Assembly (NCBI GenBank): GCA_049303835.1
Contig: JBAQNN010000002.1
Location: 9,248-73,247 of the forward strand
Source of the DNA: Minisyncoccia bacterium
GTDB taxonomy: Bacteria; Patescibacteriota; Minisyncoccia; Phycocordibacterales; UBA9973
Direction: 5' to 3'
DNA: 64,000 nt
Position numbers and translations under genes: made by a program. The notes under the pieces are model-generated. The model did no database searches and was not told where the DNA came from. It saw nothing but the letters and a program-made list of their open reading frames with translations. This document shows, one piece after another, positions 351 through 32,745 of this stretch. Positions within the stretch are counted from its first letter, which is position 1. The number at the start of each line of letters is the position of its first letter.

Positions 351-2612
351 CTATAATTCCGCGTTCATCATTGCTTTCGTCTTCGGGCCGACAAGTCCAT
401 CAGAAACTAGGCCCTTGGCACTTTGCCATTGCTTCACGGCATCCACTGTGTTCGGACCCATTTTACCATCCACTACCAGACTGAGACTTAGTTCGCTGTT
501 CAAAAATCTTTGGAGTTCTTTGACTGCTTCACCAGCACTACCCTCTCTCAAGGTAACAACTCCTAAATTGTAACCATTTTTATTCTCCTCACTTGTGCTA
601 TTTACAGTACTACTATAATTTGCACATTTTATCCCCGTAGAAGTAGAATAGGCGTTCCATCCGAGACACCCAGTCTGCACGACAGTAGTATCAAAATTAA
701 ACGTCGTCGTAGTGGTGACACCACCAGAGCTACTTACACACAACGATCCCGCAGAAGTCTGATATACCGTTCCTCCGGGGCAACCGGCTACTTCTGGTTG
801 GTCTGGAGTTTTGGGATAATAAGGAACTCCACTACCGGGTGATGGAGTCGTTGCACTTCCAGAACTTGGATCAAATTCTAGTTTATATACTTTTGCGTCC
901 TTGGAATAAACATAGGTTGTATTGCCAATAGAGAAAGAAGCAATTGAATATCCCGCGGTGTTTGCTAAAATCGGAGAATTATACAAAGTATCCGCTCCCT
1001 TTCCTTGTATCAAATCTGACACTAAATATACCTGCATCTTCAGTTGTTCGCTACTGGATCTGCTAATAACCACGATCCCCGGGTTGGCTGTATTTGCGCC
1101 AAAGGCTGTATTTGCCACGATAAGCCCAGGAGACAATGAAACTTCTTTTACTACTTCTGTTATTTTTTTGGTTGAAAAATCAAATTTATACAGAGTTAAT
1201 TTTTGAGCACCATAGAGCTTTGGATCCACGGCCGAGCCATGAGCTAAGGATCTCAAGAAATATATGTACTCTCCTCCAGAAACAGGAATCGTCCCCCATC
1301 TTTCAAGGCTGTAGGAACTAAACCCCCCCGGTAGTGATCCCCCCAAGTATGAAGGCAAATTATGTTCTGCAATAATATTTAAACTGTTTACAGAATGCAC
1401 CGATATTTCTCTAGTCCTCCCAGCCTGAGACGAAGTGTTGAGTGTTAAAATAAATTCATCATTTCCGAGAACAACTTTCTCGCCATACGGCAATTTAGGA
1501 AAACCAGAAGGAGCAGAAACCAACTCATGAACCTCTTTTTCTGTACCTTCCAAAGATACATACGACTCAACAAATTTCATTCCATTTGTGATATCATACG
1601 CATCTTCTCGCATGTCAAAAAGGATATAACTATATCCGGCTTTTACAATACCCTGAATAGGACCCCCATTAAGTAGAGATTGTTTGTATCGTTTTCCATC
1701 TTTCCAAACATAATAATTCCCCTGGCTGTCACTGATTGCCCAGATTTTTCTATCTTTACTATAAGCAACACCCACTACCCGAAGCGACGAACCAAAGTCT
1801 CCGTGTGTATCATAAGCGCCTCCCGAACGTATCTCACCACTCAATCGGGAATCTACTGGAAGTAAAGGATTGGTCAAATCAAACAACCTCGGATGAGCGG
1901 TATTTGAGCCCCCGGGGAGTTCTATCATCTCTCCTCCAACTAGAGAAGCCTCACCGCCCGACAACATGACAGATAACGGAGCCATACCGGAAGATCCAGC
2001 ACCAAATCCTCCTCTACAATTTTTTAAACCCTGTCTGCATACTGAACTCGGGAACATGGACCCAAAAAGATCCTTAAAGTCTGTTAATTTTACTTTACCG
2101 GAAACATTTGAGGTGACGGGGGTAGGTACATTTTCTCCAGGCTCCACAGGAACAACATCGCCACCACTAATATTGCTTCCAGTGATATTCAAACTCACAG
2201 TAGCTGAACCTAACACTTCAGCCGATCCACCCGAAGGACAACCGGACATCGGACAACCGGTAGAACAATAAACTTTAAAAGTTTTACTTCCTGCTTCGGC
2301 AGTGTTCTCCGCGTAAACCCTAAAATCCAACGAACTTGCCCCAATAGGAATTACTTTCCCCACATTGAGACTGGAATAAACACCTTTGGAAAATTCTTTA
2401 GCTGTGACGTACACATAGTCTCCGGAGACAGAAGGGCGATCGGAAGTGACAGTAAAAAGAAGAGAGCTACTCTGGGACATACTTGCACTCGCTGGAGATA
2501 CGGAACAAGCAGCGGGACCGACAGAAGCTGCCTCTGTGTATATTGGTGGGACTATCAGACTCGTAATAATGACTACCAATAACCCCGTTAAGATTATAAA
2601 TTTTTTATCCAT
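351..2612 (-). CDS. Large secreted Gly/Ser/Thr-rich surface protein with a C-terminal peptidoglycan-binding (PG_binding_1-like) domain
   Basis: N-terminal signal peptide MDKKFIILTGLLVVIITSLIVPPIYTEAAS. C-terminal LQRFLNSELSLSLVVDGKMGPNTVDAVKQWQSAKGLVSDGLVGPKTKAMM matches the PG-binding fold. Confidence 0.6.
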   Translation of the reverse strand: MDKKFIILTGLLVVIITSLIVPPIYTEAASVGPAACSVSPASASMSQSSSLLFTVTSDRPSVSGDYVYVTAKEFSKGVYSSLNVGKVIPIGASSLDFRVYAENTAEAGSKTFKVYCSTGCPMSGCPSGGSAEVLGSATVSLNITGSNISGGDVVPVEPGENVPTPVTSNVSGKVKLTDFKDLFGSMFPSSVCRQGLKNCRGGFGAGSSGMAPLSVMLSGGEASLVGGEMIELPGGSNTAHPRLFDLTNPLLPVDSRLSGEIRSGGAYDTHGDFGSSLRVVGVAYSKDRKIWAISDSQGNYYVWKDGKRYKQSLLNGGPIQGIVKAGYSYILFDMREDAYDITNGMKFVESYVSLEGTEKEVHELVSAPSGFPKLPYGEKVVLGNDEFILTLNTSSQAGRTREISVHSVNSLNIIAEHNLPSYLGGSLPGGFSSYSLERWGTIPVSGGEYIYFLRSLAHGSAVDPKLYGAQKLTLYKFDFSTKKITEVVKEVSLSPGLIVANTAFGANTANPGIVVISRSSSEQLKMQVYLVSDLIQGKGADTLYNSPILANTAGYSIASFSIGNTTYVYSKDAKVYKLEFDPSSGSATTPSPGSGVPYYPKTPDQPEVAGCPGGTVYQTSAGSLCVSSSGGVTTTTTFNFDTTVVQTGCLGWNAYSTSTGIKCANYSSTVNSTSEENKNGYNLGVVTLREGSAGEAVKELQRFLNSELSLSLVVDGKMGPNTVDAVKQWQSAKGLVSDGLVGPKTKAMMNAEL

Positions 2613-2665
2613 ACATTTTATATACTTACTAATAATAATTTATTCAAAATATTTAACTCGGATTA

Positions 2666-3433
2666 TTATAACACATATTTACCTATCCTGGTTCTCTTGA
2701 TGGAGAAAGCCAGAGCGGGCATTCCAACCATATTTCCAAGAGCATTTGCTATACCCCTCACATAAGTTCCACTACTGCATTTGATGTCAAATTTCGCTAT
2801 TGGAAAGACTTTCTGTCCTTTGTTTGAAACACGTAAAGTTTCTCTCCAAATTTCCAAAATTTCTTTTTGTCTAAAATCTCCTTTTACTTTTTTTATCCTT
2901 TTTTCTATGTTTTTAAATAACTTTTTATTATTTATCTCTATTATTTTATCTAATTTAAGTTTTTTAATAAATATTTTTCTCTCTGGAATTTCCACTTCTT
3001 CTCCTCTCCTCGCATATACAAACAAAGGCCTTCCTTTTACCGTTTTGGAAGAATAGATGGGATATTTTTGAATTATTTCCCCTAGAAAATTTTTTAGATT
3101 TTCTTTTATTTTTTTCTTTAAATCTCTTTTATTTAATTCTACTAATTCTCTACTAACAACCTTACCCAAAATATCAAAAGTATCTGTACTAAAACCAAAA
3201 AGAACTTGAAATTCATATTCTTTCTCTAACGTTAGATATTTTTCTTTATTTTTTGTTTCTTCACCTGCAAGTATCAGCAAAAGACCACTTGCCATCGGAT
3301 CTAGCCTACCGGCGTAAGTCATTTTTATATTTTTATATTCCGGATACTTTTTAGTTTTTTTCAGACGAAAATTTTCTAAAGCCTCAAGCGGAGTTTCCCC
3401 CTCTTTTTTGTTTAGTAAAATCACTTTCTTCAT
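2666..3433 (-). CDS. truB: tRNA pseudouridine(55) synthase TruB
   Basis: Motif AGRLDPMASGLLLILAGEETK. Start placed at MKKVILLNKKEGE (ATG at 3431-3433); the longer ORF would overlap the adjacent tRNA. Confidence 0.85.
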   Translation of the reverse strand: MKKVILLNKKEGETPLEALENFRLKKTKKYPEYKNIKMTYAGRLDPMASGLLLILAGEETKNKEKYLTLEKEYEFQVLFGFSTDTFDILGKVVSRELVELNKRDLKKKIKENLKNFLGEIIQKYPIYSSKTVKGRPLFVYARRGEEVEIPERKIFIKKLKLDKIIEINNKKLFKNIEKRIKKVKGDFRQKEILEIWRETLRVSNKGQKVFPIAKFDIKCSSGTYVRGIANALGNMVGMPALAFSIKRTRIGKYVL

Positions 3434-3521
3434 TGGCGGAGGGTAGGAGATTCGAACTCCTGGTGGATTGCTCCACACACGCTTTCCAAGCGTGCGCACT
3501 AGACCGCTATGCGAACCCTCC
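3434..3521 (-). tRNA. tRNA-Ser (anticodon GGA), type II with long variable arm
   Basis: Reverse complement folds as acceptor GGAGGGT/ACCCTCC, anticodon arm CACGC-TTGGAAA-GCGTG, variable stem-loop GTGGAGCAATCCAC, T-arm AGGAG-TTCGAAT-CTCCT, discriminator G and an encoded CCA. Confidence 0.8.
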
Positions 3522-3522
3522 G

Positions 3523-3668
3523 TAATAAATAAACAAAAAACACGCTTTCCAAGTCAGTAGTCCCTTCGGCACTAGACCGCTATGCGAACCCTCCGTAATA
3601 AATAAACAAAAAACACGCTTTCCAAGTCAGTAGTCCCTTCGGCACTAGACCGCTATGCAAACCCTTCT
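3523..3668 (-). repeat. Two tandem ~73-bp direct repeats (3523-3595 and 3596-3668, 2-3 mismatches). Each is a truncated copy of the tRNA-Ser 5' half followed by a T-run
   Basis: On the minus strand each unit reads GGAGGGTTCGCATAGCGGTCTAGTGC..CTTGGAAAGCGTG TTTTTTGTTTATTTATTA. It shares the acceptor 5' strand, D-arm and anticodon loop with the neighbouring tRNA. Confidence 0.7.
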
Positions 3669-3678
3669 TGCAACTTCC

Positions 3679-6313
<2,635 letters not shown>

Positions 6314-6314
6314 A

Positions 6315-6863
6315 TTATTCTGTCCAATTAAATAAATTTTCCGAAAAAGTCACATCATACTGACCCGAGCCTTGCGTCCATGAAACAGTAGAAAATATTT
6401 TAATATTATCGGCTGATACTGTCTCCATGTAAACAGTGCGCACAAAACCCGAATCAACACCAATAGAATTGGTATTATAATTCCCATTTTGTTCATACAA
6501 TTTACATTGGTTACTGTGAGTTGTACATACAAATACATTCTGAGGAAATAAAGTAACATCAAAACCACATCTATTGGCTAAAGTGCATGAAGATATCTTG
6601 GTTTTAAAATTATTCCACCCACCAGGAAGAGTATATAGTGCGTTTGTATCTCTCATGTTTCTGATATATTCTATACCCTCTTGGGCAAGGTAACCGGCCA
6701 CCGTTTTCTTTTTGGCATATCCGGTGTCTGAAATTCCTTTAGATAAGACAGACAGTAAACCCAGAATTGATACAGTGAAAATAGAAATGGCTACCAGGGT
6801 CTCCACCAGGGTAAAACCTTTTTCTCCTCTACCTTTTTTATTTTTTTTAAAAAATAATTTCAT
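6315..6863 (-). CDS. Type IV minor pilin (prepilin-type N-terminal cleavage/methylation domain)
   Basis: GFTLVETLVAISIFTVSILGL class III signal peptide. Confidence 0.6.
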   Translation of the reverse strand: MKLFFKKNKKGRGEKGFTLVETLVAISIFTVSILGLLSVLSKGISDTGYAKKKTVAGYLAQEGIEYIRNMRDTNALYTLPGGWNNFKTKISSCTLANRCGFDVTLFPQNVFVCTTHSNQCKLYEQNGNYNTNSIGVDSGFVRTVYMETVSADNIKIFSTVSWTQGSGQYDVTFSENLFNWTE

Positions 6864-6901
6864 TTCTTTTTAACTTTACGAACTTTTAACTTTATAGCTA
6901 T

Positions 6902-10074: not shown

Positions 10075-10102
10075 AAAAAACCACCTTCTTGGGTGGTTTT
10101 TT
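10075..10102 (-). terminator. Rho-independent terminator downstream of the first pilin gene
   Basis: AAAAAACCACC-TTCTTG-GGTGGTTTTTT hairpin flanked by A/T runs (bidirectional). Confidence 0.5.
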
Positions 10103-10129
10103 GGAAACTAACCTAAAGCAAGAATAATA

Positions 10130-10564
10130 TTAAGGACATACTGTAACTGCCCCAGCTGGGTTAGTTCCAAGTAGTTTTGATGCTCCTGTACTGTCTACAC
10201 ACCAGGAATCTGTTGGTTCTGTCTTTAACTCTACCCATGCAGCCCACGCAGTAGTGCTATCGGCACATCTTGTAGCTACTGTTCCAGCAGAACCAGCGGA
10301 CAACAAAGCTGCGTTGACCGCACTTATAATACTAGCATTTCCACATACTCCATCATAACCCACAACATCAGTAGGAGTCTCTACTGTATCGTACACGAGT
10401 TCTGCCTGAGCACGAGTGTTTGCCAAGTTTGCTTTGATAGCTGCGTCAGCACCCTTTGCTCGCGCAGTATTGAGCGAAGCCAAAACAACCGAAGCCAAAA
10501 TACCGATGATGGCCACTACCACCAACAATTCAATCAATGTAAAACCTTTCTTTGAATTCTTCAT
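10130..10564 (-). CDS. Type IV pilin (major pilin paralog 1)
   Basis: KKGFTLIELLVVVAIIGILASVVLASLNTARAKGADAAIKANLANTRAQAEL. C-terminal SWCVDSTG..VCP. Confidence 0.75.
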   Translation of the reverse strand: MKNSKKGFTLIELLVVVAIIGILASVVLASLNTARAKGADAAIKANLANTRAQAELVYDTVETPTDVVGYDGVCGNASIISAVNAALLSAGSAGTVATRCADSTTAWAAWVELKTEPTDSWCVDSTGASKLLGTNPAGAVTVCP

Positions 10565-19934: not shown

Positions 19935-20425
19935 AATTTATTTATTGTAATTTCTGATTTCGGATCAAACGCATTCGGATCCATTTTTAAATGTGAGACG
20001 TGCTTTTCTTGTGTGACATAAGAACCCAAGAATTTCAAAAAGTCTTCCGTCTTGTCCATTTCTCCTTTTTCTTCCATATGTTCCAGTGGATGTGCTTCAG
20101 GAGTAAATTCAAAATGTCCACATATTTCCCCGTCCTTGTAAACCCGCAAATGATACTGATCTTGAAAATCCATCAACTTCCTCCAACTCAAAACTTGATC
20201 TTCGTCTATCCAAGCGATGAAGTGATTGCCAAAACCCCATTTATCATGCAGATGATTTTTTAATTCTTCCAAGGTCTTTCCAGGGGCCAACCATCCTATG
20301 TGGTATCTCTGCCTTCCCTTTTTATGCCAAACTAGCCCTATCTTCAAAAGAAATTGTCTGATAGGCAAAAAGAATTTATAAATAAAATTCCAGATATCTT
20401 GTTTAATTTTATCAAAAAATGTCAT
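19931..20425 (-). CDS. Hypothetical protein
   Basis: Clean ORF. Start taken at MTFFDK (ATG) so it does not overlap the tRNA. Confidence 0.4.
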   Translation of the reverse strand: MTFFDKIKQDIWNFIYKFFLPIRQFLLKIGLVWHKKGRQRYHIGWLAPGKTLEELKNHLHDKWGFGNHFIAWIDEDQVLSWRKLMDFQDQYHLRVYKDGEICGHFEFTPEAHPLEHMEEKGEMDKTEDFLKFLGSYVTQEKHVSHLKMDPNAFDPKSEITINKF

Positions 20426-20450
20426 GGCAATACTATAACACAAAACCCTG

Positions 20451-20539
20451 CGGAGCCGGACGGATTCGAACCGTCGAGGGGTTTTGAAGCCCCTGCCTCT
20501 TTAGCAAAGAGGTACGTTAGACCACTCTGACACGGCTCC
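20451..20539 (-). tRNA. tRNA-Ser (anticodon GCT), type II
   Basis: Acceptor GGAGCCG/CGGCTCC, anticodon arm CCTCT-TTGCTAA-AGAGG, long variable arm, T-arm GACGG-TTCGAAT-CCGTC. CCA not encoded. Confidence 0.8.
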
Positions 20540-20629
20540 GTACGTAATTAAATAATTACTTAATTACGTAGTTACTCTAGCATATTTGTTTCATTTTTCC
20601 ATTTTTCTGCTATACTCCTTTTAAGTTTA

Positions 20630-20744
20630 GGAGAGATGGGTGAGATGGGCAAGGAGGCAACTGCTTGCCTCCGAGCCGGCACGAAGTGCAGGCCACGAAC
20701 CCATCGAATCGCGCAAGCGACTCCGTTTAAGCGGAGCTAATATA
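20630..20744 (+). other. tRNA-like fragment: duplicate of the first 15 nt of the downstream tRNA, then a ~100-nt GC-rich structured segment
   Basis: GGAGAGATGGGTGAG is identical to the 5' end of the tRNA at 20746. It is followed by an 8-bp stem GGAGGCAA-CTGC-TTGCCTCC and the hairpin GACTCCG-TTTAA-GCGGAGC. Confidence 0.3.
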
Positions 20745-20745
20745 C

Positions 20746-20835
20746 GGAGAGATGGGTGAGTGGCTTAAACCAACAGTTTACTAAACTGTCGTCCCCTTAA
20801 AAGGACCGAGGGTTCGAATCCCTCTCTCTCCGCCA
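20746..20835 (+). tRNA. Type II tRNA (long variable arm) with an atypical anticodon loop. The standard cloverleaf gives anticodon ACT (Ser-like); a one-nt register shift gives CTA
   Basis: Acceptor GGAGAGA/TCTCTCC, anticodon hairpin ACAGT-TTACTAA-ACTGT, variable arm CGTCCCCTTAAAAGGACC, T-arm GAGGG-TTCGAAT-CCCTC, encoded CCA. Confidence 0.55.
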
Positions 20836-20850
20836 AAACATTTCAATGAT

Positions 20851-21999
20851 TTATATTTCATCAATTGCCTGCCCTGCTAGATTTTCCGCATCATCAGCCA
20901 GATCTTTGGCATCCTCATAGTTGTCGTCATCAAATTCGTTTTGAGCATCTTCTAGTTTGTCTTTGGCGTCATTGAGCAAGTCCTCAGCGTCACTGACATC
21001 TTCTCCATCATCGTCCGCTTCATTGATTTGTTCTTCTGCATCATCTATGGCACTCTCTGCATCATCTATGGCGTCTTCGGCATCATTTTTTTCATTTTCG
21101 TCGCCGATAGCATCCACGGCATCGTCCGCTAGATCGGAAGCTTCATCAGCCAACTCTATCGCTTCCTCAAAATTTTCTTCGTCAAAAGCTTCTTCCGCTT
21201 GATCTAACTTATCGTTTGCTTCATCTAAAATATTTTCTGCCTCTTTTGTATTCTCGCCATCTTCATCCGCATTTTCTATTTTATTTTCAGCATTTTTTAT
21301 ATCCTTTCTGGCCTCGTCTATCACATCATCTGCCTCCCCTTCGTCTGATTCTCCTCCGGCATCTTCGTAAGCATCTTCAGCATTCTTAAGAGAATCATCT
21401 GCCGATTCAAAAGCCTCAACGAAGTCCTTATCGCGGAAAAGAGAAGAAATAGCTTCAAATAAATACTCCTTGGCATCCTCAATATTATTATCAGCTGCTG
21501 TGGTATCTCCATCAAAATCATCAATTTCGTCATCTGCTTTATCTATCATATCCAAGGCTTCTTTGATTTTATTTATAGCCTTTAGCTCTTCGCTGGTCGT
21601 GCCCTTGGATGTATTTATCGTACTTGGTGCACTCGGAGCACTTGGAGTAGCGGGAATTGCCGGAGTGGACACAGAGCTGGTTAGCATTTTATATTTTGTT
21701 CTTGAGATAGCTCCGAAGTATCCTTTGGCTGGGCTTATGCCGTTTGCTTGTTGCCAAAGAACAAGAGCGTTCTCAGTTTTTTGTTTAAAAGTGTCTGTCT
21801 CTTTACCCACAGAACCAGCCCCAGATGAAGAAATTACATAACCAGAATTATTTAAATACTGTTGGAGACAACGTACGTCCTCCCCCGTAGAACCAAATTC
21901 CAAATCCCTAGTAAAATCGCACGCACCCGTGGCGTTCGCAGACAGAGCGATAAAAAATGACGCGAAGACAAGGGAAAATTTTAATATTTTTGTTTTCAT
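20851..21999 (-). CDS. Secreted peptidoglycan-binding protein with a long acidic (D/E-rich) degenerate-repeat C-terminal region
   Basis: Signal peptide, then a PG_binding_1-like segment (GEDVRCLQQYLNNSGY..), then ~250 aa of DAEDAIDDAESAIDDAEEQINEADDDGED-type repeats. Confidence 0.6.
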   Translation of the reverse strand: MKTKILKFSLVFASFFIALSANATGACDFTRDLEFGSTGEDVRCLQQYLNNSGYVISSSGAGSVGKETDTFKQKTENALVLWQQANGISPAKGYFGAISRTKYKMLTSSVSTPAIPATPSAPSAPSTINTSKGTTSEELKAINKIKEALDMIDKADDEIDDFDGDTTAADNNIEDAKEYLFEAISSLFRDKDFVEAFESADDSLKNAEDAYEDAGGESDEGEADDVIDEARKDIKNAENKIENADEDGENTKEAENILDEANDKLDQAEEAFDEENFEEAIELADEASDLADDAVDAIGDENEKNDAEDAIDDAESAIDDAEEQINEADDDGEDVSDAEDLLNDAKDKLEDAQNEFDDDNYEDAKDLADDAENLAGQAIDEI

Positions 22000-28294: not shown

Positions 28295-28468
28295 GTGTGA
28301 GTCATTATACATGAATTTGGCAAAAAATGACCAGTACTTTTCACCAATTTTGACAAAAGAAAACACTAAAAAAAAGAAGACAAGAGCTAGGCGCTCCGAC
28401 CGAGTATTTGTAAGCTCAAAAGACGACAGTCCTTGAAATAAATTCAACCAGGTATAAACTAATTTTTG

Positions 28469-28542
28469 TCCGCGTGCCACGATTCGAACGTGGGACCCTC
28501 GAGGTATAAGCTCGATGCTCTAACCAACTGAGCTACACGCGG
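28469..28542 (-). tRNA. tRNA-Ile (anticodon TAT), 74 nt, class I
   Basis: Acceptor CCGCGTG/CACGCGG, D-arm GCTC-AGTTGGTTA-GAGC, anticodon arm TCGAG-CTTATAC-CTCGA, T-arm CCACG-TTCGAAT-CGTGG. CCA not encoded. Confidence 0.65.
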
Positions 28543-32343: not shown

Positions 32344-32745
32344 TGGTGGAGATGGGGGAAATCGAATCCCCGTGCAGAAGGTTTTTGTAAAGAAGTCTAC
32401 ATACATAGCGCGCTTTTTTGTTTAGGTTAAAAAATTCTTAAGCGAGCCAAATATTTTTTAACCGATTCTCTTTGTTTCGGGAGAAAGCCGAGAAATTCTG
32501 TCCCCTATCCCGATAATGTTATGCCTCGTCTTATATATCGGAAGTCTATAAGAGAGACACGAGTTTACGCGAAAGCGGAAACTCGAGCGAAAGCAAAGTC
32601 ATTCATACCGAAGTATGGAGAGACTGCTACTTTCACCTTGGAAGCTAATTTTGCAATTAAGCTATTGAACGAATTTTTACGAGGTTACGTCCATGCTCGG
32701 TATGCATCAATGACAAAAGGCCGACTGTCTATGCCTGGCATCCCC
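32344..32745 (-). ncRNA. ssrA: tmRNA (SsrA)
   Basis: 5' GGGGATGCC pairs with 3' ..GGGGATTCGATTTCCCCCATCTCCACCA, a tRNA-like acceptor/T-arm. An internal ORF-like tag frame ends ..GCT TTC GCG TAA (..AFA*). It lies immediately upstream of smpB. Confidence 0.75.

Follow-up and report, generated by a model that had tools for sequence, protein, structure and literature searches.

The 64,000-nucleotide (nt) stretch of contig JBAQNN010000002.1 from a Minisyncoccia bacterium (hereafter the window) carries a serine transfer RNA (tRNA) gene with the anticodon ACU at 20746-20835. It is preceded directly by a 116-nt block that repeats the first 15 nt of the tRNA and continues into a structured region. In bacterial tRNAs other than tRNA-Arg(ACG), adenosine at the wobble position (A34) is the textbook 'forbidden' base. 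The explanation that we favour, and on balance consider rather probable when taken as a whole, has three parts: the gene encodes a genuine tRNA-Ser(ACU), the block upstream is a structured leader derived from a tRNA, and this leader may control maturation of the tRNA to which it is attached.

The identity of the tRNA is supported by several features. Of the four tRNAs that ARAGORN calls in the window, one is tRNA-Ser(act) and another, its neighbour on the opposite strand, is tRNA-Ser(gct) (Table 1). The Rfam tRNA model RF00005 scores the ACU gene at 57.2 bits, against a gathering score of 29, with zero non-canonical pairs. A 7-base pair (bp) acceptor stem, a 5-bp anticodon stem with a 7-nt loop, the T-arm GTTCGAATC and a long variable arm are all present, as in a type II tRNA. 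The anticodon arm reads ACAGT-TTACTAA-ACTGT, a 5-bp stem closing the loop UU-ACU-AA, with U33 and A37 in the standard register. The serine identity elements found are the long variable arm, G73 and the pairs G1-C72, G2-C71 and A3-U70; the identity rules applied here are those of E. coli. An alignment of 17 sequences from relatives, metagenome loci and phages gave a type II cloverleaf with compensatory change in 21 of 24 stem pairs. Judged by these features, 20746-20835 is an intact, genuine serine tRNA with the anticodon ACU in the standard register, and its charging with serine is predicted from the identity elements. An earlier, sequence-only reading of this DNA had called the tRNA functional-looking with ACU in the standard register, which the ARAGORN and Rfam calls and the retention of U33 and A37-A38 in every homologue bear out. 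The closest known counterpart is the canonical bacterial tRNA-Ser(GCU), the decoder of AGY codons, with which the ACU tRNA shares the type II cloverleaf, a 3-bp D-stem, the long variable arm, G73 and a UU-NNN-AA loop. It differs in having A34 instead of G34, and it coexists with a separate, quite different GCU gene.

The sequence-only reading had also entertained a register shifted by one nt, in which the CUA string in the anticodon loop would let the tRNA suppress amber (UAG) codons. Recoded phages are known to carry suppressor tRNAs. However, the shifted register would place an A at position 33 and leave a single nt 3′ of the anticodon, whereas all homologues have YU-ACU-AA on a 5-bp stem and both ARAGORN and Rfam set ACU at positions 34-36. 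The 50 long open reading frames (ORFs) of the window end in TAA (35), TAG (13) or TGA (2); TGA is nearly avoided, TAG is in use as a stop codon, as had been noted before, and no recoding signal was seen. Amber suppression is thus extremely improbable.

The same tRNA pair is found in relatives. In the window, the Ser(ACU) and Ser(GCU) genes stand head to head, 206 nt apart, with quite different sequences; their 5′ ends face each other, so that the pair is divergent and not convergent as first described. Flanking genes encode PilM/FtsA-like, ComF-like and RecG proteins, among others. The GCU gene adjoins a gene for a 170-amino acid (aa) protein, whose homologues are labelled Candidatus Nomurabacteria or Paceibacterota in their source records. 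Two loci, L001 and L002, were fetched via this neighbour protein, independently of tRNA sequence, and both hold the same divergent Ser(gct)/Ser(act) pair. Their ACU tRNAs show paired differences from that of the window in the acceptor, anticodon and T stems, while the loop UUACUAA is identical. The loci of the closest homologues of the 170-aa protein (P0001, P0003 and P0006) are without the tRNA pair. Metagenomes were scanned with a 38-nt pattern that covers the D-arm and the anticodon arm, with ACT fixed, and at least 120 loci matched. Among the 120 matches listed, 81 Ser(gct) calls stand alongside 114 Ser(act) calls, and 72 loci also hold homologues of the window neighbours (recG, the 170-aa gene, comF and pilM); RecG homologues in the syntenic loci are 55-90% identical to the RecG of the window. 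This synteny and the co-residence of the two tRNAs argue that the Ser(ACU)/Ser(GCU) pair is a vertically inherited, fixed pair of chromosomal genes in a Nomurabacteria/Paceibacterota lineage, located between the 170-aa gene and recG.

The ACU tRNA is also widespread in viruses. Scanning IMG/VR with a looser pattern (the serine D-arm plus YTACTAA) returned at least 120 viral contigs, and the matches listed comprise several distinct tRNA backbones. ARAGORN called Ser(act) in 117 of the 120 viral loci listed and Ser(gct) in two, the sole other A34 tRNA being Arg(acg); in arrays of 27-29 tRNAs, Ser(act) and Ser(tga) are the sole serine tRNAs. A narrower pattern of the D-arm backbone, in which the anticodon was left free, found 27 tRNAs in viral contigs. 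All of these are GCU, which suggests that the ACU tRNA arose from an AGY tRNA by a G34A change. The sequence-only reading had foreseen that relatives might carry the same sequence under a standard annotation. Relatives do carry the same gene, and the copy in the cultured Xanthomonas phage XaC1 is annotated merely as 'tRNA-Ser', but the anticodon is ACU in all relatives examined, and the gene is therefore not a mis-folded conventional isoacceptor. Full-text literature searches on the ACU anticodon found no description of a natural tRNA-Ser(ACU).

Some viral copies lie very near those of the window lineage. This is the case in six IMG/VR contigs with 13-27 tRNAs (L038, L054, L096, L112, L119 and L151). 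In these L038-type genes, nt 6-21 are identical to those of the U-variant of the window-lineage tRNA (GAUGGGUGAGUGGUUU) and the T-arm is identical to that of L002, which suggests exchange of Ser(ACU) between phages and these bacteria. In L001, the region just past the 3′ end of tRNA-Ser(ACU) (1-412 and 409-3664) holds a gene for a large serine recombinase together with two unannotated ones, and may represent an element integrated at the Ser(ACU) locus.

What the tRNA decodes depends on the state of A34. Most likely, the Ser(ACU) tRNA reads AGU by Watson-Crick pairing with an unmodified A34, and supplements the G34 wobble decoder in AT-rich, AGU-biased genomes. AGU is used 182 times in the window and AGC 98 times (65% AGU); the share of AGU is 61% in related loci and 73% in viral loci. 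When an orthogonal tRNA with an unmodified ACU anticodon was expressed in E. coli, AGU was read and reading of AGC and AGA was below detection (PMC11066159). A survey of GtRNAdb counted 695 non-ACG ANN genes among 246,393 bacterial tRNAs; ANN tRNAs of two-fold boxes were sporadic in those genomes and always present alongside a GNN gene (preprint 10.64898/2026.05.15.725136). Anticodons with A34 are likewise naturally retained in AT-rich genomes by Mycoplasma tRNA-Thr(AGU), with unmodified A34 (PMC11066159), and by Lactobacillales/Oenococcus tRNA-Leu(AAG), with inosine at this position (I34; preprint 10.64898/2026.05.15.725136). Those two tRNAs serve four-fold boxes in which misreading is harmless, whereas ACU belongs to the split AGN box that serine shares with arginine.

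Alternatively, A34 could be converted to inosine by a TadA-type enzyme. An ICU anticodon would read AGU and AGC, and AGA at some cost, and the tRNA would then stand in for tRNA-Ser(GCU) instead of specialising in AGU. U33-A34-C35 are present in the loop, as they are in tRNA-Arg(ACG), and with Ser(gct) nearly absent from the viral loci, including the arrays of 27-29 tRNAs, Ser(ACU) would have to cover the whole AGY box there. In E. coli, I34 was formed in Phe-AAA, the one ANN tRNA of a two-fold box that was tested (preprint 10.64898/2026.05.15.725136). One locus, L191, encodes a TadA-like nucleoside deaminase (5929-6498, - strand) directly downstream of tRNA-Ser(gct) (6508-6599), with tRNA-Ser(act) at 6802-6890. 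The best NCBIfam match of this protein is tRNA adenosine(34) deaminase, at 73.6 bits and under the 150-bit cutoff, and L191 is a distant relative and the sole such locus. Inosine at A34 would be costly, however, because AGA is abundant and would be mistranslated as serine: it is the most frequent arginine codon of the window (241 codons) and very frequent in viral loci (4,025 AGA versus 2,569 CGN). Furthermore, position 36 is U in Ser(ACU) where the known TadA substrate has G36, and a deaminase motif is absent from the 64-kb window. Conversion to inosine is therefore rather doubtful, if less so than the other alternatives weighed here.

Conflict between phages and their hosts provides another possible origin. 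Many viral contigs (L041, L055, L061, L097, L117, L123 and L139, among L035-L154) carry just a small set, Thr(UGU)-Asn(GUU)-Ser(ACU), or Asn(GUU)-Ser(ACU) alone. Thr(UGU) and Asn(GUU) are among the tRNAs cleaved by the PARIS nuclease AriB (PMC12409363). Ser(ACU) could thus be mainly a phage-type tRNA that escapes an anticodon nuclease acting on tRNA-Ser(GCU)-like loops and was later kept by the bacterium, rather than an adaptation to codon usage. In favour of this, Ser(ACU) shares its backbone with phage tRNA-Ser(GCU) genes and abounds in viral arrays that have almost no Ser(GCU), the recurring minimal sets recall the tRNAs cut by AriB, and phage tRNAs with nuclease-evading loop changes are documented (PMC10264068). 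Such tRNAs, exemplified by those of T5 against PARIS AriB, VapC and PrrC (PMC10264068, PMC12409363), share with Ser(ACU) a wide occurrence in viral arrays and an anticodon-loop change relative to the host-type isoacceptor. By contrast, the ACU change lies in the anticodon itself and alters decoding, and the window copy is a bacterial gene inherited vertically, which in this lineage lies on the chromosome in conserved synteny and coexists with GCU. The AGU share is alike in viral loci with a GCU tRNA (0.70) and with an ACU tRNA (0.73), and these codon data do not discriminate between conflict and codon adaptation. No nuclease targeting tRNA-Ser(GCU) was identified in this analysis, and we know of none that is cognate to the ACU change. 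We regard a primary role in conflict as distinctly unlikely, and decoding of AGU as the better account.

The second part of the finding concerns the DNA immediately upstream. The 15-mer GGAGAGATGGGTGAG occurs exactly twice in the 64 kb, at 20630-20644 and as the first 15 nt of the tRNA (20746-20760), which agrees with the duplication originally reported. The chance expectation, allowing ≤2 mismatches, is 0.04, and 0 of 100 shuffles contained two matches. A third copy with 80% identity begins 9 nt after the first, and GAGATGGGY is thus tandemly repeated. The 101 nt between the two exact copies have 52-59% G+C, compared to 39% in the window, and a folding z-score of -4.6. From the extended -10 box TGCTATACT, we infer that transcription would start at ~20623. 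A TGnTATACT box is found at the same distance from the leader copy in loci that bear the element as from tRNA +1 in loci without it; in L001 and L002, where just 73-91 nt separate the tRNA genes, the box lies 15-25 nt before tRNA +1. A generic two-hexamer promoter scan did not flag the TGCTATACT box.

Homologues of the leader were found solely by fetching the tRNA and then reading upstream. A blastn search of the 101 nt against the 120 metagenome loci identified homologues in L269, L291, L282, L245, L259, L240 and L215, with 74-86% identity and in each case immediately 5′ of the tRNA; L232 and L184 were added with a covariance model. Divergent variants of the leader are present in L257, L271, L292 and L194. 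The structure shared by the homologues comprises three hairpins (HP1, HP2 and HP3) and a short closing helix, P0. The 8-bp GC stem GGAGGCAA/TTGCCTCC of HP1, already recognised in the sequence-only reading, shows two-sided changes in 7 of 8 pairs, with 98.5% of alignment cells paired and seven different stem sequences, every one of them paired. Two pairs of HP3 have two-sided changes (CUAC/GUGG, CCGC/GCGG). P0 is paired in all sequences, and its 3′ strand changes to CUUCC in L184 and CUUC in L232, where the tRNA and the leader copy begin GGAAG.

These helices are strongly favoured over shifted pairings. With the hand-drawn structure (P0, P2, HP1, HP2 and HP3), 92.8% of cells pair, versus 30-44% when the 3′ partners are slid by 1-3 columns, and two-sided changes occur in 11 pairs versus 1-2. 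An 11-sequence model alignment gave 94.5% versus 22-44% and 14 pairs versus 1-3. In both cases, the observed covariation score or percentage paired was reached in 0 of 500 shuffles. RNAalifold, working from the alignment alone, recovered HP1, the inner part of HP2, HP3 and P0, with compensatory change in 14 of 22 predicted pairs. The G.U pairs of the leader would be A.C mismatches on the opposite strand, and the structure therefore belongs to the + strand RNA. On these comparative grounds, the 116 nt at 20630-20745 are a conserved, structured leader in cis to the tRNA, and constitute a new RNA motif. A search of Rfam 15 over 20400-20900 at E ≤ 10 found no relevant family over the leader, T-box, ribozymes, signal recognition particle (SRP) RNA, 6S RNA and group I introns included, and in L259, L232, L257 and L194 nothing over the leader reached the gathering score.

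Other readings of the block were considered and set aside. A 34-aa ORF at 20636-20740 might have encoded a leader peptide or small protein, but indels of 1, 2 and 4 nt in or after HP2 break its frame in homologues, and variant leaders encode unrelated short peptides. Hammerhead, SRP, T-box and tRNA-like readings of the leader were unsupported both by eye and by Rfam.

The leader is patchily distributed. The nearest relatives of the window (L260, L261 and L274) are collinear with it up to CCTTTTAGGTTTA, directly followed by GGAGAG, and are without exactly one 116-nt unit. L259 has two tandem leader units, and in L245 a full unit is preceded by an internally deleted one. Among 114 evaluable loci, nine have the full element, three a 134-nt variant, nine only a short remnant that includes the 5′ copy and 93 none; overall, the leader is present in about 10% of related loci.

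Where it is present, the leader tracks the adjacent tRNA. The leader copy matches the tRNA 5′ end of each lineage: GGAGAGA... in most, GGAAGATTGGATGAG in L232, GGAGGCGTGGAT in the L257 type and GGAAGATTGGGT in L194. The most conserved stretch of the leader is an antisense segment, AGGCCACGAACCCATC, directed against tRNA nt 6-21 (GAUGGGUGAGUGGCUU). Pairing involves 14 of 16 positions in the window and 12-14 of 16 in all ten homologues, with a constant tandem G.A/A.G opposite tRNA nt 13-14. Each antisense pairs best with its own tRNA, that of L245 jointly best (13/16). Three compensatory changes are found in the L232 antisense (UCCAAU against AUUGGA) and others in L282 and L245. The pairing runs beyond the duplicated 15-mer into the D-loop, and a leader G/A at the second HP2 pair tracks the tRNA D-loop C/U, although the A gives a C.A mismatch in HP2.

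These observations bear on the view that the upstream block is functionless, either a decaying tandem pseudo-tRNA or the footprint of a mobile or integrating element with a 15-bp target duplication. Direct repeats of 15 bp, clean presence or absence of the block among close relatives, internally deleted or truncated remnants (L245, L277, L280, L290, L195, L182 and L187) and the lack of the block in most loci are all as such a view would predict. Nonetheless, HP1 of the block exists in no fewer than seven stem sequences, each of them paired, and HP2, HP3 and P0 have compensatory changes. Its internal antisense co-evolves with the local tRNA, which is not expected of a mobile element. Terminal inverted repeats are lacking, no integrase, transposase or other recombinase lies nearby in the window, and blastn and nhmmer found no second copy in the window or in loci L001-L157. 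Exact segments of the element had zero matches in viral contigs and in the metagenome collection, and a GC-rich 20-mer of HP2 had 15 chance matches among genome contigs, in coding regions of GC-rich bacteria with dissimilar flanks. A functionless block is accordingly very unlikely. The sequence-only reading had offered an integration scar, a split or pseudo-tRNA and a tRNA-like regulatory RNA as possibilities. The last, or a pseudo-tRNA, comes closest for an element that is conserved, supported by covariation and tRNA-derived; the scar fails on the conservation of the insert's structure across lineages and on its co-varying antisense, and the split tRNA on the complete tRNA that lies downstream.

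The third part of the explanation is a proposed mechanism. For all eight full precursors, ViennaRNA places the minimum-energy fold in a swapped arrangement, 7-12 kcal/mol below the leader fold plus cloverleaf, in which the leader copy takes the place of the tRNA 5′ end in the acceptor stem, and the antisense pairs with the tRNA's own 5′ part and D-arm. Because the leader copy and the tRNA 5′ end are interchangeable as partners for the antisense and the 3′ acceptor strand, the precursor has two registers, and covariation is seen in the pairings of both. Leader and tRNA would be transcribed together from one promoter, and the sense copy would compete with the tRNA 5′ end for these two partners. 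In the first fold, the leader would pair on itself beside a normal cloverleaf that can be processed; in the second, swapped fold, the tRNA 5′ part and D-arm would be sequestered. The leader could in this way set the amount or timing of mature tRNA-Ser(ACU) released by 5′ processing. Control of precursor folding or 5′ processing in cis is our best guess for its function. A more specific proposal, which we put forward tentatively and as possible rather than probable, is that the leader represents a previously undescribed kind of riboregulator that arose from a tRNA. What was once a tandem tRNA copy would have come to carry a decoy and an antisense for its neighbour's 5′ half, toggling the precursor between processable and sequestered states, perhaps upon binding of a factor to HP1 or HP2, and gating how much of a risky A34 serine tRNA is available in a codon box that serine and arginine share. 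Separately, 10 nt of perfect complementarity connect promoter-proximal TCCTTTTAAG (20616-20625) with the tRNA variable arm CTTAAAAGGA (20796-20805); the former lies at or before the presumed transcription start, and the match may be due to chance.

The leader might instead be a stand-alone small RNA that acts in trans, as an antisense or sponge for Ser(ACU)-type precursors, including those of phages, or as a protein-binding RNA, with the tRNA serving only to supply its 3′ end via RNase P. Its fold is compact, supported by covariation and self-closed through P0, it is GC-rich within an AT-rich genome, and it occurs as tandem units in L259 and L245; the L038-type viral tRNA-Ser(ACU) genes that share nt 6-21 with the window lineage would be plausible targets. 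On the other hand, the leader is never found away from the 5′ side of this tRNA in the window and ~2 Mb of related loci, the sense copy, the antisense and P0 each follow the sequence of the tRNA next to them, which indicates a relationship in cis, and no terminator or independent 3′ end of the leader was seen. Action in trans is therefore unlikely, and control in cis remains the preferred reading of the leader.

Several considerations weigh against the explanation as a whole. Because the patterns used to retrieve the large tRNA sets had ACT fixed, these sets alone cannot show conservation of the anticodon, which was tested free of this bias in L001 and L002 only. Deamination of A34 would extend decoding to AGC and to AGA, an abundant arginine codon. 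The leader is dispensable, being missing from the 93 loci noted above, the nearest relatives of the window included, and decayed in the nine with remnants. Its covariation derives from 11 related sequences and a handful of independent events. The link between D-loop C/U and leader G/A, which is key evidence for pairing beyond the duplicated 15-mer, may reflect a single evolutionary event. Finally, the computed fold energies ignore tRNA tertiary structure, Mg2+ and modifications, and co-transcriptional folding would favour the unswapped fold.

The leader probably descends from a tandem tRNA duplicate that subsequently diverged. The order of its parts (acceptor 5′ strand, D-stem 5′ strand, hairpin, hairpin, T-arm-like hairpin and acceptor 3′ strand) resembles a type II tRNA. 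The apex of HP1 holds AACUG(C) or ACAGUU, the two strands of the tRNA anticodon stem. In addition, a family of short remnants (L182, L187, L224 and L280) resembles a decayed copy of tRNA nt 1-30.

The arrangement partially resembles several known systems. The separate tRNA 5′ fragment and the GC-rich complementary segment able to join the parts recall the disrupted tRNA genes of archaea, be they split, permuted or intron-containing, and the swapped fold looks like a tRNA with a 116-nt D-loop insertion (PMC3978253). In the window, however, a complete tRNA lies downstream, splicing is unneeded and the host is a bacterium; no bulge-helix-bulge motif was seen in the precursor by eye, a formal search for it not having been run. 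T-box leader RNAs are likewise structured 5′ leaders matched in sequence to one particular tRNA. Unlike a T-box, the present leader precedes a tRNA gene instead of an amino-acid or aminoacyl-tRNA synthetase gene, lacks a specifier codon, a T-box sequence, a terminator/antiterminator and an Rfam match, and pairs in cis with the tRNA 5′ and D region, whereas T-boxes pair in trans with the anticodon and the CCA end. The E. coli 3′ETS-leuZ sponge is a functional tRNA-precursor spacer, and thus another selected non-tRNA part of a tRNA transcript. The window element differs from it in being a 5′ leader rather than a 3′ trailer, in being tRNA-derived and in being complementary to its own tRNA.

Table 1. 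Features of the tRNA-Ser(ACU) locus, in window coordinates
Feature	Position	Strand	Basis and remarks
tRNA-Ser(GCU), divergent partner of the Ser(ACU) gene	20450..20539	-	ARAGORN; Rfam tRNA, 44.7 bits
Promoter-like extended -10 box TGCTATACT	20608..20616	+	Read from the sequence; 13 nt upstream of the leader copy
Leader copy of tRNA nt 1-15 (GGAGAGATGGGTGAG)	20630..20644	+	Exact repeat; first 4 nt form the P0 helix with 20721-20724
Leader body, 101 nt	20645..20745	+	HP1, HP2, antisense, HP3, P0 3′ strand and a poorly conserved tail ending AATATAC just before tRNA +1
HP1, 8-bp stem GGAGGCAA/TTGCCTCC, apical CUGC	20653..20672	+	Covariation; loop motif AACUGCUU kept in this subtype
HP2, GCCGGCAC-GAA-GTGCAGGC, one internal mismatch	20675..20693	+	Two-sided changes in 4 pairs; inner part found independently by RNAalifold
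Antisense segment AGGCCACGAACCCATC	20690..20705	+	Complementary to tRNA nt 6-21 (GAUGGGUGAGUGGCUU); its 3′ part also to the leader copy
HP3, TCGC-GCAA-GCGA, T-arm-like	20709..20720	+	100% of cells paired; directly followed by the P0 3′ strand
P0 3′ strand, CTCC	20721..20724	+	Pairs with GGAG at 20630-20633; resembles the end of a tRNA 3′ acceptor strand
tRNA-Ser(ACU), type II	20746..20835	+	ARAGORN, Rfam tRNA; anticodon ACT at 20780-20782; discriminator G73; CCA encoded

Further features surround the locus. Between the divergent tRNA genes, and perfectly centred, is an AT-rich palindrome (20541-20570; TACGTAATTAAATAA/TTACTTAATTACGTA, 93%), which could be an operator or a bidirectional element; TACGTA-rich palindromes are similarly placed in the close relatives L260, L261 and L274. 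Converging on the tRNA 3′ end is the gene for a 382-aa protein (20851-21999, - strand); the N-terminus of this protein is signal-like, and it has a peptidoglycan-binding domain and a long, acidic stretch of Asp/Glu-rich repeats that matches DUF4398. In L232, a LOOT RNA (Rfam RF03000, 56.7 bits versus a gathering score of 46.4) lies at 10102-10220 on the + strand, 3.5 kb from the tRNA.

Two additional RNA genes were recorded elsewhere in the window. A tRNA-Ile with the anticodon UAU (28468-28542, - strand) was called by ARAGORN and scored 69.2 bits with Rfam, and Ile(tat) is also present in 13 related metagenome loci among the matches listed. In most bacteria, AUA is read by a lysidine-modified CAU tRNA. 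The transfer-messenger RNA gene (32344-32745, - strand; Rfam RF00023, 117.5 bits) has a long insertion in the tag-coding region of the alignment.

If the reading of the locus given here is right, tRNA-Ser(ACU) is a new and widespread variant, fixed and syntenic across a candidate-phylum lineage and frequent in the tRNA arrays of phages. It would provide natural material for asking whether an unmodified A34 serves in a codon box that is split, how AGA escapes misreading and why phages prefer this tRNA. The leader, in turn, would be a new structured RNA motif and one of few cis elements attached to a tRNA gene. Its built-in sense/antisense logic makes the proposed maturation switch directly testable.

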